A stretch of DNA of 64,000 bases from assembly GCF_048403405.1 (NCBI RefSeq), contig NZ_CP183129.1. One strand, given 5' to 3'. The DNA comes from Escherichia coli. GTDB lineage: Bacteria; Pseudomonadota; Gammaproteobacteria; Enterobacterales; Enterobacteriaceae. Of this stretch, positions 32,242 through 38,900 are shown in pieces (position 1 is the stretch's first letter; the number at the start of each line of letters is the position of its first letter). The notes beneath the pieces are model-generated. The model worked only from the letters and a program-made list of their open reading frames with translations, was not told where the DNA came from and searched no databases. The position numbers and the translations under genes are program-made.

Positions 32242-33252
32242 ATGAAGGCTGCAGTTGTTACGAAGGATCATCATGTTGACGTTACGGATAAAACACTGCG
32301 CTCACTGAAACATGGCGAAGCCCTGCTGAAAATGGAGTGTTGTGGTGTATGTCACACCGATCTTCATGTTAAGAATGGCGATTTTGGTGACAAAACCGGC
32401 GTAATTCTGGGCCATGAAGGCATCGGTGTGGTGGCAGAAGTTGGCCCAGGTGTCACCTCATTAAAACCAGGCGATCGTGCCAGCGTGGCGTGGTTTTACG
32501 AAGGATGCGGTCATTGCGAATACTGTAATAGTGGTAACGAAACCCTCTGCCGTTCTGTTAAAAACGCCGGATACAGCGTTGATGGCGGGATGGCTGAAGA
32601 GTGCATCGTGGTCGCCGATTACGCGGTAAAAGTGCCCGATGGCCTGGACTCGGCGGCGGCCAGCAGCATTACCTGTGCGGGCGTCACCACCTACAAAGCG
32701 GTGAAGCTGTCAAAAATTCGTCCCGGTCAGTGGATTGCTATCTACGGTCTTGGCGGTCTGGGTAACCTCGCCCTGCAATACGCGAAGAATGTCTTTAACG
32801 CGAAAGTGATCGCCATTGATGTCAATGATGAGCAGTTAAAACTGGCAACCGAAATGGGCGCTGATTTAGCGATTAACTCACGCACCGAAGACGCCGCCAA
32901 AATTGTGCAGGAAAAAACCGGTGGCGCTCACGCTGCGGTGGTGACAGCGGTAGCTAAAGCTGCGTTTAACTCGGCAGTTGATGCTGTCCGTGCAGGCGGG
33001 CGTGTTGTGGCAGTCGGTCTGCCGCCGGAGTCTATGAGCCTGGATATCCCACGGTTGGTGCTGGATGGTATTGAAGTGGTCGGTTCGCTGGTCGGCACGC
33101 GCCAGGATCTAACCGAAGCCTTCCAGTTTGCGGCCGAAGGCAAAGTGGTGCCGAAAGTCGCCCTGCGTCCGTTAGCGGACATCAACACCATCTTTACTGA
33201 GATGGAAGAAGGCAAAATCCGTGGCCGTATGGTGATTGATTTCCGCCGCTAA
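32242..33252 (+). CDS. adhP: Zn-dependent alcohol dehydrogenase, propanol-preferring
   Basis: 336 aa from [11 protein letters not shown]; zinc-ligand cysteines; aaaggagg RBS. Confidence 0.95.
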
Positions 33253-33397
33253 GAGGCCTTTGCTGCGACTGCCATGTTCGGGTCGCAGCATCGCACACTC
33301 TCCAACATGAAATGGCTAAATGGATTATTGTTGCGTAGGAAGGAACAATAATGATAGTGTTCCTGGTGAAGGAACGCTACTGAGAGTAAAGACACTA

Positions 33398-33682
33398 ATG
33401 AAAATGGCCAATCATCCCCGCCCGGGGGACATTATTCAGGAATCACTGGACGAACTTAATGTCAGCCTGCGCGAGTTTGCCAGAGCAATGGAAATTGCGC
33501 CCTCAACGGCAAGCCGATTGCTGACCGGAAAAGCAGCTTTGACACCAGAAATGGCGATTAAACTTTCCGTGGTGATCGGCAGTTCGCCGCAAATGTGGCT
33601 GAATCTGCAAAACGCCTGGAGTCTGGCAGAGGCAGAAAAAACGGTGGATGTGTCGCGATTACGCCGTCTGGTTACGCAATAA
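33398..33682 (+). CDS. yddM: HigA/VapI-like HTH (XRE-family) protein YddM
   Basis: About 94 aa from [14 protein letters not shown]; the exact start is uncertain (ORF track begins at 33320). Confidence 0.7.
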
Positions 33683-33690
33683 ATAAATAT

Positions 33691-33714
33691 CCTCCGGCAT
33701 AGCCGGAGGTTTTT
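33691..33714 (+). terminator. Hairpin cctccggc-ata-gccggagg plus ttttt after yddM (may alternatively be an IS200 end structure)
   Basis: Perfect 8-bp stem plus T-run. Confidence 0.55.
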
Positions 33715-33790
33715 CAAATGCGCCTGTAAGGCTCTGTTACCAGCCGCGCCCTAACAGGCGCATACGATCTGACATTTGCATTCAACTTCG

Positions 33791-34249
33791 TTACTTACGG
33801 CCCGTAAACGGGCTGCCCGGATAGGGAATCGATAACTGCTCCCCCATTTTATCCTCTTCAAGCTGGTGCTTTATGTAGTCCTGTATCTTCGCCGTGTTCT
33901 TACCCACCGTATCGACATAGTACCCTCGGCACCAGAACTCCCTGTTTCTGTATTTGAATTTCAAATCCCCAAACTGCTCGTAAAGCATCAGACTGCTTTT
34001 CCCTTTCAGATATCCCATAAAGCCGGATACGCTCATTTTGGGTGGGATTTCCACAAGCATATGGATATGATCTGCGCAGCACTCTGCTTCCAGAATCCGT
34101 ACGCTTTTCCACTCACACAGCTTTCTCAAAATACTGCCTATCGCCCTACGCTTCTCTCCGTAAAACGCCAGTCTTCGGTATTTCGGCGCAAAAACTATGT
34201 GATATTTACAGTTCCAGCGGGTGTGCGCTAAGCTCTTTTCGTCCCCCAT
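33791..34249 (-). CDS. tnpA: IS200 transposase TnpA (Y1 HUH, 152 aa)
   Basis: MGDEKSLAHTRWNCKYHIVFAPKYRR…; contains the HUH motif (DHIHML) and a catalytic-Tyr region typical of IS200 TnpA. Confidence 0.88.
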   Translation of the reverse strand: MGDEKSLAHTRWNCKYHIVFAPKYRRLAFYGEKRRAIGSILRKLCEWKSVRILEAECCADHIHMLVEIPPKMSVSGFMGYLKGKSSLMLYEQFGDLKFKYRNREFWCRGYYVDTVGKNTAKIQDYIKHQLEEDKMGEQLSIPYPGSPFTGRK

Positions 34250-34387
34250 TGGGACCCCCTTTTGATTTCTTGTTTGACACTTGCAGTTGCCAGACCGCAA
34301 GGTGTTTTAACAAATCAAAAGGGGTTTTAATAACTGGCTCAAAGCTGAAAGCTTTCCGGAACCCCCAGCCTAGCTGGGGGTTTTCTG

Positions 34388-34422
34388 TGCACAAAAAAAT
34401 GGCGCTTCTTAAAGCGCCATTT
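34388..34422 (-). terminator. Rho-independent terminator of fdnGHI (aatggcgctt/aagcgccatt stem; T7 run on the minus strand)
   Basis: 10-bp stem followed by ttttttt in the minus-strand sense, just downstream of the fdnI stop. Confidence 0.7.
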
Positions 34423-34444
34423 TCAGCTTAAAGTTCAAAAGAGA

Positions 34445-35098
34445 TTATATCCCTTCTTCACTCTCTTTTTTCGCTTCTGCCTTCTCGATTTCACGATACC
34501 AGCGCGGATGGTGTTTCTTCGCCCAGCGACGGCTCACCTTCCCTTCGATCATCCCTTTAATCGATCCTTTCACCCAGAATGCCATATACATATGGATCAG
34601 GATGGCGTGGATCAGGATGATACCCGCAGCCGCGTGAATCAGCAGGCTGTAGCGAACAACCTGCATCGGGAAGTACTGCGCAAAGTACGGACGCCAGATA
34701 ATCACCCCGGTCACCAGCAGCACGAAAATCATGCTCATGATCGACCAGAACATCATCTTTTGCCCGGCGTTGTACTTACCGACATCCGCCACTTTGTGCT
34801 CATTGCCTTTTAATACTTCGACAATGTTCAACAGCCACGGAATATCTTTCTTATCCGGGATGTTGTGATGCACAAAACGCACAAACATAAACATCAGCGC
34901 GACGAAAATCGCAATGCCGAAGAACGGGTGCAAAATGCGTCCCATCTGCGGCGTACCGAAGGTTTGCGTCAGCCATTGCAGCGTCGGGAAGAAGAATGAA
35001 ATCCCGGACAGCGCCACCAGGAAGAAGCAAATCACCACGGTCCAGTGACAGGCGCGATCAATAAATTTGGTGCGCACAATCATTTTCGACTTACTCAT
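34445..35098 (-). CDS. fdnI: Formate dehydrogenase-N gamma subunit (cytochrome b556)
   Basis: 217 aa from [12 protein letters not shown]; membrane cytochrome b. Confidence 0.93.
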
Positions 35099-35987: not shown

Positions 35988-38900
35988 TTACGCCTTCTCA
36001 ATGTTGACTAAGAACGCTTTATATTCCGGCGTTTGCGAGTTTGCATCACCGACATTCGGCGTCAGAGTGTTAGCGATATAACCTTTACGCGCGACACCCT
36101 CAAAGCCCCAGTGGATTGGAATACCCACCGTTTCAACCTGCTGACCGTTTACATTCAGCGGCTTCAGACGGCGCGTTACCACAGCCACCGCGCGGATAAA
36201 GCCACGCTTGCTGGATACGGTGACACGGTCGCCATTGGCGATGCCTTTCGCCGCCGCCAGCGTTTCGCTGATTTCCACAAACTGTTCCGGCTGAGCAATG
36301 GCGTTGAGCAATGCATGCTTAGTCCAGGTGTGGAAGTGCTCGGTCAGACGATAGGTCGTACCCACATACGGGAACTGCTCTTTTTTACCCATCCGCAGCG
36401 CGTCTTGTTCATACAGACGAACGACCGGGTTAGACACCACGTTCGGATGCAGCGGGTTAGTGCCCAGCGGCGTTTCAATTGGCTCGTAGTGTTCCGGGAA
36501 CGGACCTTCCGCCATTTTGTTGATGGCAAACAGGCGTCCCATCCCTTCCGGCTGCATGATAAACGGTCCGGTTAGTGTACCTGGCGCGGCATTGCCGAAG
36601 TCCGGAATATCGTTACCCGTCCACTTGCTGCCGTTCCACTGGATCAGCATCCGTTTCGGATCCCACGGTTTACCGTTGATATCCGCCGAAGCACGGTTGT
36701 AGAGTACGCGACGGTTGAGCGGCCACGCCCAGGCCCATCCCAGCGTATTCCCCAGACCGGACGGGTCGGAGTTATCGCGGTTAGCCATCTGGTTGCCCTG
36801 CTCTGTCCAGCTACCGGTGTAGATCCAGCAAGAAGATGCGGTTGTACCGTCATCACGCAGATGCGCAAAGCTACTCAGCAACTGACCTTTCTTCGCAATC
36901 AGCACGCCATTGGCATCATAGAGATCTTCCAGCGCGTAGCCGTTGTTCTCTTTAGCTACTTCGTCAGATTGCGGTTCGTGCGGCTGCTTGTAGTTCCAGC
37001 TCATCTTCATCAGCGGTTCTACGCCTTTACCACCTTCGGCCTGGTACAGCTCGCGCAGATGATGGTAGATACCCGCCAGAATTTCGCCGTCGTTACGCGC
37101 TTCGCCCGGCGCGTCCTGACCTTTCCAGTGCCACTGCAACCAGCGACCGGAGTTAGCAATAGAACCATCTTCCTCAGCAAAGCAGGTCGAAGGCAGACGG
37201 AATACTTCAGTCTGAATAGACGCAGGATCGACATCGTTCGACTCGCCGTGGTTCTGCCAGAAGGTAGAAGTTTCAGTCACCAGCGGATCGATAACCACCA
37301 TATACTTCAGCTTGCTCAGGCAGCTTACCACTTTGTTTTTGTCCGGGAAGGACGCAACCGGGTTAAAGCCCTGGCAGAAATAACCGGTGACTTTGCCTTC
37401 ATCCATCATGTTGAAATACTTGATGACGTCGTAGGTCTGGTCCCACTTGGGCAGCCAGTCGTAGCCCCAGTTGTTCTCTTTCTGCGCAGCATCGCCGTAG
37501 AAAGATTTCATCAGGCTAACGAAGAACTTCGGATAGTTGCTCCAGTAGTTCACCTGATCAGCCAGCGTCGCTTTCGGCGTGTTCGCTTCCAGATACGACT
37601 GCAAATCAACCTGTTTTTCTGACGGCAGCGTCAGATAACCCGGCAGGCTGGTAGAGAGCAGGCCTAAGTCGGTCAGCCCCTGAATGTTGGAGTGACCACG
37701 CAATGCGTTCACGCCGCCACCGGCCATACCCATGTTACCGAGCAGTAACTGGATCATCGCCATAGTACGGATGTTCTGCGCACCCACGGTGTGCTGCGTC
37801 CAGCCCAGCGCGTAAAGGAAGGTGGTTGTGCGATCCGGTGCGCTGGTGGAGGCCAGCACTTCACACACTTTCAGGAAGTCGGCTTTTGGCGTACCACAGA
37901 TGTTTTCTACTACGTCCGGCGTGTAGCGGGAAACGTGCTCTTTCAGCAAGTTCCACACACAGCGCGGATGAGTCAGTGTTTCATCGCGTTTCGCATAGCC
38001 GTTTTCATCGAACTGATAGTTCCAGGACGATTTATCGTATTGACGTTTTTCAGCGTCGTAGCCGCTGAACAGACCGTCTTCGAAAGCAAAATCATCACGC
38101 ACCAGCAGACTGGCGTTGGTGTAATGCTTAACGTATTCGGCGTTGATTTTGTTGTTTTCGATCAGGTAGCGCAAAACGCCAGACAGGAACGTAATGTCCG
38201 TACCGGAACGAATAGGTGCGTAAATATCCGCTACAGAAGCGGTACGCGTAAAACGGGGATCGACAACGATCAAGGTTGCATCGTTGTTGTTTTTCGCTTC
38301 CATCGCCCAGCGGAAACCGACGGGATGCGCTTCAGCAGCGTTACCGCCCATCACCATTACGACGTTAGCGTTTTTGATATCCACCCAGTGGTTGGTCATC
38401 GCACCGCGACCAAATGTTGGAGCAAGACTTGCTACCGTTGGTCCGTGTCAGACGCGCGCCTGGTTGTCTACCGCCAGCATCCCGAGGGAGCGGGCAAATT
38501 TCTGGGTCAGCATCCCGGTTTCGTTGCTGGCACCGGAGGCACACAGCATACCGGTAGAAAGCCAACGGTTTACCGTTACGCCCTGCTCGTTCTTTTCAAT
38601 AAAGTTAGCGTCACGGTCAGCTTTCATCAGCTTCGCAATACGGGAGAATGCTTCATCCCAGCTAATGCGCTGCCATTTGTCAGAACCTGGCGCACGATAT
38701 TCCGGGTAGCGCAGACGGTTTTCGCTGTTGACGTAATCCAGCAAACCGGCCCCTTTCGGGCACAGCGCACCACGGCTTACCGGATGATCCGGGTCACCTT
38801 CAATGTGATAAATCGCTTCTCTGGCGTTTTTCGCGCCATCACCCAGGCTATACATCAATAGCCCGCAACCTACGGAACAGTATGTGCAGGTGTTACGGAT

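Follow-up and report, generated by a model that had tools for sequence, protein, structure and literature searches.

Several HigA-type systems have been described with which the yddM locus of Escherichia coli can be compared. The HigB-HigA module of Rts1 (PDB 4MCX/4MCT, 6CHV) is carried on a plasmid, and its operators O1 and O2 overlap the -35 and -10 elements of a promoter that HigA alone represses about 211-fold (PMC12266136). HigA of Pseudomonas aeruginosa (PA4674) has the same fold as the HigA structure of E. coli CFT073 (PMC6987408). By way of palindromes it acts as a repressor of its own operon, and its control extends to further genes, for example mvfR; a wider regulatory role of an antitoxin thus has a precedent. 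The CFT073 structure itself (2ICP/2ICT) is named "YddM from E. coli CFT073" in a review (PMC3968373). In the adherent-invasive (AIEC) strain NRG857c, a pair is listed as TA20 (ParE-2/HigA-2), and K-12 and HS are antitoxin-only at that locus (PMC7232551). For the YbaQ/HigB-1 pair of E. coli, higB-1 survives only in B2 and F strains and was lost in K-12, leaving a conserved DNA-binding orphan; the essentiality of YbaQ in toxin-bearing strains and the derepression of the toxin were both shown experimentally (Rousset et al., bioRxiv 10.1101/2020.05.25.114553). In the literature that we searched, no comparable essentiality or derepression data were found for YddM. The orphan status of YddM in K-12 and HS, its structure, its DNA binding in K-12 and the parallel YbaQ/HigB-1 case are already published. 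Our additions to these are incremental, namely the population frequencies of the two arrangements, the deletion scar, a conserved operator pair and the recurrent inactivation of the toxin.

The DNA analysed here (the window) is a stretch of 64,000 nucleotides from an E. coli chromosome. A 1401-bp stretch around yddM is 100% identical to several complete E. coli genomes, from whose annotation the gene names were taken, and the gene order is maeA-adhP-yddM-(IS200)-fdnI-fdnH-fdnG. The genes next to yddM and a hairpin in the intergenic region are as follows.

32242-33252, plus strand: adhP (alcohol dehydrogenase), the upstream neighbour of yddM (PGAP annotation of the identical locus; tblastn, 100% identity)
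33261-33290, plus strand: hairpin just 3' of adhP, with a 9-bp stem (TGCTGCGAC/GTCGCAGCA) and no T-run (inverted-repeat search)
33398-33682, plus strand: yddM, HigA-type antitoxin / XRE helix-turn-helix protein of 94 aa (ORF, Pfam, NCBIfam, PGAP and PDB matches)
34445-35098, minus strand: fdnI, the convergent downstream neighbour of yddM (annotation; tblastn)

The yddM reading frame starts with ATG, stops with TAA at 33680-33682, and is separated from the adhP stop (33252) by exactly 145 bp. PGAP labels the identical sequence "yddM: HigA family addiction module antitoxin". The hairpin after adhP was found in toxin-less and toxin-bearing alleles alike. A longer reading frame of 120 aa from an ATG at 33320 was considered as the true yddM and is not credible, because the extension begins upstream of the conserved operator region and higB fills this position in toxin-bearing strains; the Pfam match is the same with or without the extension. 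As a side observation on the neighbourhood, fdnG (35988-38399, minus strand) appears in the list of reading frames with 803 aa, while the annotated gene has 3048 bp. This is consistent with a mechanical split at the known in-frame TGA selenocysteine codon of formate dehydrogenase-N.

When compared with the systems above, the locus is closest to that of CFT073 and NRG857c. The TA20 coordinates in NRG857c were checked and lie in the same adhP-fdnI locus, and the HigA protein of CFT073 and HigA-2 of NRG857c, also at this locus, are 100% identical to YddM of the window. The difference is that a 279-bp toxin gene precedes the antitoxin in those strains, whereas in the window this gene has been lost by deletion and the stop codon of yddM is followed by an IS200. 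The Rts1 module is similar in its toxin-first order, in the N-terminal XRE helix-turn-helix of its HigA and in having two operators over the -35 and -10, which at yddM are candidate sites. However, the yddM module is chromosomal, old at its locus and without a toxin in the window, and, unlike those of Rts1, its operator half-sites and their 29-bp spacing were derived from sequence only. P. aeruginosa HigA is distant from YddM (E 2e-8), uses a different palindrome (TTAAC GTTAA) and still has its toxin. The YbaQ/HigB-1 pair has the same evolutionary story as YddM, but at a different locus and with a different protein. K-12 HigA (YgjM) of higBA (ygjNM) resembles YddM in name, in its toxin-first order and in having an XRE helix-turn-helix; its helix-turn-helix is at the C-terminus (PMC6987408), and with this different family architecture and its different locus it is distinct from YddM. 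The higB counter-selection toxin of PMC4513841 was also considered as the higB of this locus and was rejected, as it is the unrelated ygjN of K-12.

The sequence-only reading had described YddM as a short XRE/HigA-like helix-turn-helix protein, and this is borne out by a profile search and by identity to a solved antitoxin. YddM falls in the HigA family, scoring 93.7 bits against the equivalog model TIGR02607 (antidote_HigA, NCBIfam; cutoff 47.7, E 4.5e-27) over 80 of the 81 model positions, and Pfam HTH_3 matches its residues 14-65 (E 7.6e-10). In size and domain content it agrees with the family, whose members have an N-terminal Cro/C1-type XRE helix-turn-helix and about 95-105 aa, and it is identical in 94/94 residues (100%) to PDB 2ICP/2ICT ("antitoxin HigA", E. 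coli CFT073). The next-best solved relatives are Rts1 HigA of Proteus vulgaris (4MCX, E 1.3e-18), GraA and the E. coli paralogue YbaQ, which is detectable with E 5.6e-9 (PDB 2EBY). A HigA is further expected directly downstream of HigB (PF05015) in one operon. This position is not seen in the window, and it is occupied by the identical protein in 1329 E. coli genomes and by the products of orthologous loci; the missing toxin partner is a feature that was lost in the window rather than one absent from the start. From the 100% identity with the HigB-paired copies, YddM is predicted to bind and neutralise HigB.

Short XRE proteins are often over-annotated, and the K-12 protein is listed just as a putative transcription factor, so that one may ask whether YddM has always been a stand-alone XRE regulator, with no past as an antitoxin, and carries the HigA label by over-annotation. 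We give this practically no credence. Not only does YddM pass an equivalog-level HigA model, but the identical protein is encoded in a translationally overlapping operon with HigB in a quarter of E. coli genomes and in all of the related genera sampled, and these synteny data refute it.

The partner was found in strain KE48, where a 279-bp gene annotated as "RelE/ParE family toxin" lies between adhP and yddM, its stop overlapping the yddM start (TGATG). The KE48 locus was first met by tblastn of plasmid records, where it is a mis-filed chromosomal fragment. The 92-aa product matches Pfam HigB-like_toxin (PF05015, E 3.8e-17). Its alignment with Rts1 HigB (4MCT_B, E 1.2e-31) runs over the full length of both proteins and takes in the LHPL and C-terminal YEDYH segments. 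For the 5426 complete E. coli genomes, yddM is present in some form in 5412; higB and yddM occur together in 1329 genomes, including Nissle 1917, ST131 and NRG857c, and the toxin-less arrangement of the window occurs in 4077, including K-12, BL21, O157:H7 and NCTC86. A cross-species scan with one genome per species gave 41 loci. The yddM orthologue is immediately preceded by an intact higB in E. albertii, other Escherichia lineages, 13 Citrobacter species, Cedecea, Buttiauxella, Pluralibacter, Enterobacter, Chimaeribacter and Erwinia. It adjoins fdnI in Escherichia, Citrobacter, Pluralibacter and Enterobacter; adhP is its neighbour in Escherichia and two Citrobacter. Since the higB-yddM pair is present in related genera, the pair is old at the locus and the toxin-less allele is derived. 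The orphan YddM thus descends from a complete toxin-antitoxin pair, with the same locus, the same promoter-operator block and the toxin in the outgroups. The sequence-only reading had held that a partner toxin in an operon with yddM would speak against an orphan antitoxin. Such a partner exists as an intact higB upstream at the same locus in other strains, and there is none in the window; therefore, the orphan state arose by deletion and is not original.

The toxin has been inactivated at this locus in other ways as well. In E. coli H105, higB has a 1-nt deletion at codon 33 and is labelled "frameshifted" by PGAP; when 30 evenly spaced rows of the higB search were inspected, 12 showed this 278-nt form. 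A large share of the toxin-bearing B2-type genomes thus probably carry a dead toxin beside an intact yddM, and the toxin may be intact in only about 15% of E. coli genomes. A single O157:H7 genome, TR01, has the O1 region fused directly to the last 47 nt of higB, with an adhP-side segment resembling the toxin-bearing type; this allele is either an independent toxin loss or a recombinant. Independent decay of higB beside an intact yddM orthologue was seen in Citrobacter sp. FP75, C. portucalensis A60, Xenorhabdus lircayensis, X. khoisanae and Chimaeribacter californicus, where it takes the form of internal deletion, frameshift, 5' truncation or absence. Toxin loss at the yddM locus is recurrent, and at least four independent routes of inactivation are visible, with the antitoxin sequence unchanged.

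In the window, no trace of the toxin was recognised. With a HigB profile HMM built from 24 orthologous toxins, no HigB-like translation was found at 33240-33420 in six-frame fragments with all filters off, and the six-frame search of the whole 64 kb was equally empty, its best match having 6.2 bits (E 2.8) at a place distant from yddM. A tblastn search for HigB was likewise negative. The two earlier statements on this point, that no toxin adjoins yddM and that the 145 bp upstream are too short for a HigB-type toxin, both stand, since higB at the same position elsewhere has 279 bp. A degraded toxin pseudogene, which had been proposed as something to be sought in the flanks, does not exist in this allele, where at most about 9 nt of higB are left within a scar of 21 nt.

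The window is only 64 kb of the genome, and further HigB-like toxins are known from E. coli, such as the higB-1 that precedes ybaQ in B2/F strains. YddM might therefore serve a cognate toxin encoded elsewhere in the same genome and be no orphan at all. This we regard as very improbable. Besides the absence of HigB-like sequence in the window, DNA matches to higB were found at 1330 chromosomal places in the 5426 genomes, which is consistent with one copy per toxin-bearing genome; the matches listed all lie over yddM, and among these 1330 there is no sign of a second higB copy at the DNA level. The toxin higB-1, for its part, has its own antitoxin in YbaQ. Both labels offered at first for YddM, orphan antitoxin and stand-alone regulator, hold; they are just not alternatives, as the orphan can now act only as a stand-alone DNA-binding protein.

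The region between adhP and yddM has kept the elements by which the former operon may have been controlled.

33329-33347, no strand assigned: operator-like palindrome O1, TGTTGC-N7-GGAACA (cross-genus conservation; pattern search; inverted-repeat search)
33331-33336, plus strand: candidate -35, TTGCGT (alignment, by eye)
33353-33358, plus strand: candidate -10, GATAGT, abutting O2 (alignment, by eye)
33358-33376, no strand assigned: operator-like palindrome O2, TGTTCC-N7-GGAACG, extended to 33355-33379 as TAGTGTTCCT/AGGAACGCTA (conservation; pattern and inverted-repeat searches)

When 25 higB upstream regions from some eight genera were aligned, two inverted repeats of the form TGTTSC-N7-GGAACR proved to be conserved, with the candidate -10 hexamer between them. 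This exact pattern occurs twice in the window, both times upstream of yddM. O1 and O2 were also detected as inverted repeats of 9-10 nt, and their centres are 29 bp apart. O1 sits within an extended 9-bp inverted repeat at 33324-33352 and overlaps the candidate -35, while the position of the candidate -10 is occupied by GATAAT, TATACT or TATGAT in the orthologues. A consensus scan called no sigma-70 promoter upstream of yddM, and the candidate hexamers are weak, with 3/6 and 4/6 matches. We infer the position of the promoter from the conservation across genera and from the published binding peak of the RNA polymerase sigma-70 holoenzyme between adhP and yddM in K-12 (PMC3946193). In the same toxin-less strain, in vivo DNA binding by YddM was confirmed by ChIP-exo, which also yielded a motif (PMC6237786).

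Two further variants of this region were seen in toxin-less strains. Some of them have a 29-bp deletion (window 33339-33367) between 8-bp direct repeats GAAGGAAC (33339-33346 and 33368-33375), which removes the candidate -10 and leaves a hybrid of the O1 left half and the O2 right half. E. coli ECSC054 is one carrier, at least one carrier shares the IS200 insertion of the window, and the frequency of the deletion can be given roughly as 3 of 45 evenly spaced rows in the yddM search and 1 of 30 rows in the higB-yddM search. The deletion fits either tolerance of silencing or a promoter located elsewhere. In three toxin-less strains, the perfect 9-bp inverted repeats ATTATTGTT/AACAATAAT within 33324-33352 enclose their 11-nt loop in the opposite orientation, CCTTCCTACGC in place of GCGTAGGAAGG. 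This is a hairpin-loop inversion in which the half-sites of O1 are swapped and the palindrome is preserved.

The loss of higB itself is recorded immediately downstream of O2.

33377-33397, plus strand: deletion scar of 21 nt, CTACTGAGAGTAAAGACACTA (O2 end to yddM ATG compared between alleles)

From the end of O2 to the yddM ATG there are 21 nt in the window and 289 nt in toxin-bearing strains, a net loss of 268 nt; the 289 nt consist of an 11-nt leader and the 279-bp higB, which shares one base with the yddM ATG. A 48-bp block is common to both alleles (window version TGTTGCGTAGGAAGGAACAATAATGATAGTGTTCCTGGTGAAGGAACG), and upstream of O1 and this block a further net 50 nt are missing in the window when compared with the toxin-bearing allele. 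The same scar was found in all of the sampled toxin-less alleles (10/10), which points to one single deletion event. Global alignments of the two alleles put the gap wrongly, and the exact breakpoints are ambiguous; the simplest reading of the deletion would be a 3-nt microhomology (CAC) at AGACAC / ATCAC, with extra small indels required. The Shine-Dalgarno sequence of the operon (GAGGA inside higB) was lost with the deletion, and a weak GAGAG remains 11 nt upstream of the yddM ATG. Taking these comparisons together, we are nearly certain that YddM is an orphan HigA produced by the deletion of higB.

On the other side of the gene, the window carries an insertion that is absent from most genomes.

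33684-34395, minus strand: IS200 insertion of 709-712 bp, the range reflecting ends that are ambiguous within an A-run (empty-site comparison)
33691-33709, plus strand: hairpin at the IS200 right end, CCTCCGGCATAGCCGGAGG followed by TTTTT (terminator scan)
33791-34249, minus strand: tnpA of IS200, convergent with yddM (Pfam Y1_Tnp PF01797, E 7.8e-37; NCBIfam transpos_IS200 NF033573, 144 bits; annotation)
34259-34382, minus strand: IS200 5' leader RNA, Rfam STnc490 (146.4 bits against a gathering score of 56, E 1.6e-31)
34393-34423, no strand assigned: original bidirectional terminator of yddM and fdnI, A7-TGGCGCTTCTTAAAGCGCCA-T4 (empty sites)

The element has all the marks of its family, with a Y1 (HUH) transposase, a length of about 0.7 kb, a terminal hairpin and a leader RNA. 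Weak Rfam matches to Ysr202 and STnc320 were far below their gathering scores and were ignored. The insertion had been placed about 10 bp downstream of yddM; from the comparison with empty sites this has to be corrected, as it starts 2 nt after the stop codon. In the empty sites, the terminator comes directly after the yddM stop, the original sequence containing CAATAAAAAAATGGCGCTTCTTAAAGCGCCATTTT. IS200 leaves the yddM reading frame intact and separates the original terminator from it, and the first terminator-like structure that now follows yddM is the hairpin of the IS200 right end. Of the 5426 complete E. coli genomes, 308 share this insertion. As for the spacer between yddM and fdnI, K-12 has 406 bp, KE48 has 228 bp and other strains have only 50 bp; since these lengths differ, other insertions, possibly REP-type elements, occupy the spot used by IS200 in the window.

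We propose the following course of events. The ancestor was an old chromosomal higB-higA module of the Proteus/Rts1 type between adhP and fdnI, from which higB was excised in the lineage of the window, giving the allele that is the commonest in E. coli and is also that of K-12. The deletion spared the promoter region and both operator-like palindromes, which leaves yddM as a single gene behind the control region of the former operon. Without a toxin to neutralise, the remaining activity of YddM would be DNA binding as an XRE-type dimer. The protein most probably represses its own promoter, with O1 over the -35 and O2 over the -10 and the start site, like Rts1 HigA, and it may bind a few further chromosomal sites. 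IS200 has swapped the shared terminator for its own terminal hairpin, the coding sequence being untouched. For the statement as a whole, that YddM is an orphan HigA from a higB deletion and now a stand-alone XRE regulator repressing its own promoter, our confidence is moderate, leaning towards acceptance.

The next consideration is whether the orphan is still maintained. Eight of 10 toxin-less alleles encode the same YddM protein as the toxin-bearing strains, with up to 11 synonymous differences in the DNA. The segregating changes in the ten toxin-less alleles number 10 synonymous and 3 nonsynonymous, when about 72% nonsynonymous changes would be expected under neutrality (P<=7e-4), and the comparison with Citrobacter gives a dN/dS of about 0.04. 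In these ten alleles, which include K-12, O157:H7 and environmental strains, yddM is free of frameshifts and premature stops, and it is covered at full length in all of the 4077 toxin-less genomes. These counts suggest purifying selection on yddM during the orphan period.

It could be that yddM is a neutral relic, functionless since the loss of higB, which persists because the deletion is recent relative to the diversity of E. coli or through recombination from toxin-bearing strains, in which it is needed. In the yddM gene tree, toxin-less and toxin-bearing strains are unseparated, with zero fixed differences between the groups, and of the variants confined to toxin-less alleles, only 4 are synonymous and 2 nonsynonymous (P=0.056). 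The loss of the candidate -10 by the 29-bp deletion in a few percent of the sampled genomes, the weak translation signals in the scar and the viability of the K-12 knockouts (Keio strains) agree with such a relic, and the sole reported knockout phenotype is epetraborole hypersusceptibility, without complementation. But the near-universal presence and full length of the gene, the lack of disrupted copies, the excess of synonymous changes overall and the DNA binding that K-12 YddM still performs in vivo all count against it, and we consider a relic rather unlikely.

A second possibility is anti-addiction, with the orphan YddM retained to neutralise HigB that plasmids or phages bring in. Orphan and HigB-paired YddM have the same sequence, the toxin-binding surface of the orphan thus being intact. 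YddM-related HigA/HigB pairs were found on 386 plasmid records (76 from Escherichia) and higB at 60-80% DNA identity in 25 plasmid places. However, when mis-filed chromosomal fragments are set aside, the plasmid HigA relatives are at most 57% identical to YddM. At such HigA identities, cross-neutralisation is usually lost, and we think this explanation improbable. In a wider form, the orphan YddM would be actively kept by selection in the roughly 75% of E. coli without HigB, either as an autoregulated host transcription factor with a small, possibly stress-related regulon or as standing immunity to incoming HigB. We put this forward as a tentative idea only, any present-day benefit of YddM being conjectural. 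If it were true, the recurrent, independent higB inactivations, that is, the common deletion, the widespread 1-nt frameshift, the partial deletion of TR01 and the decay in Citrobacter and Xenorhabdus, would form a natural series for the domestication of an antitoxin.

For annotation, the label "HigA family addiction module antitoxin" is in this strain no evidence of a working toxin-antitoxin system, because the toxin is gone. Beyond correct annotation the locus has little importance, but it is a tidy natural case of toxin loss with the antitoxin kept. In parallel with YbaQ/HigB-1, the yddM locus can be used to ask why solitary antitoxins persist.
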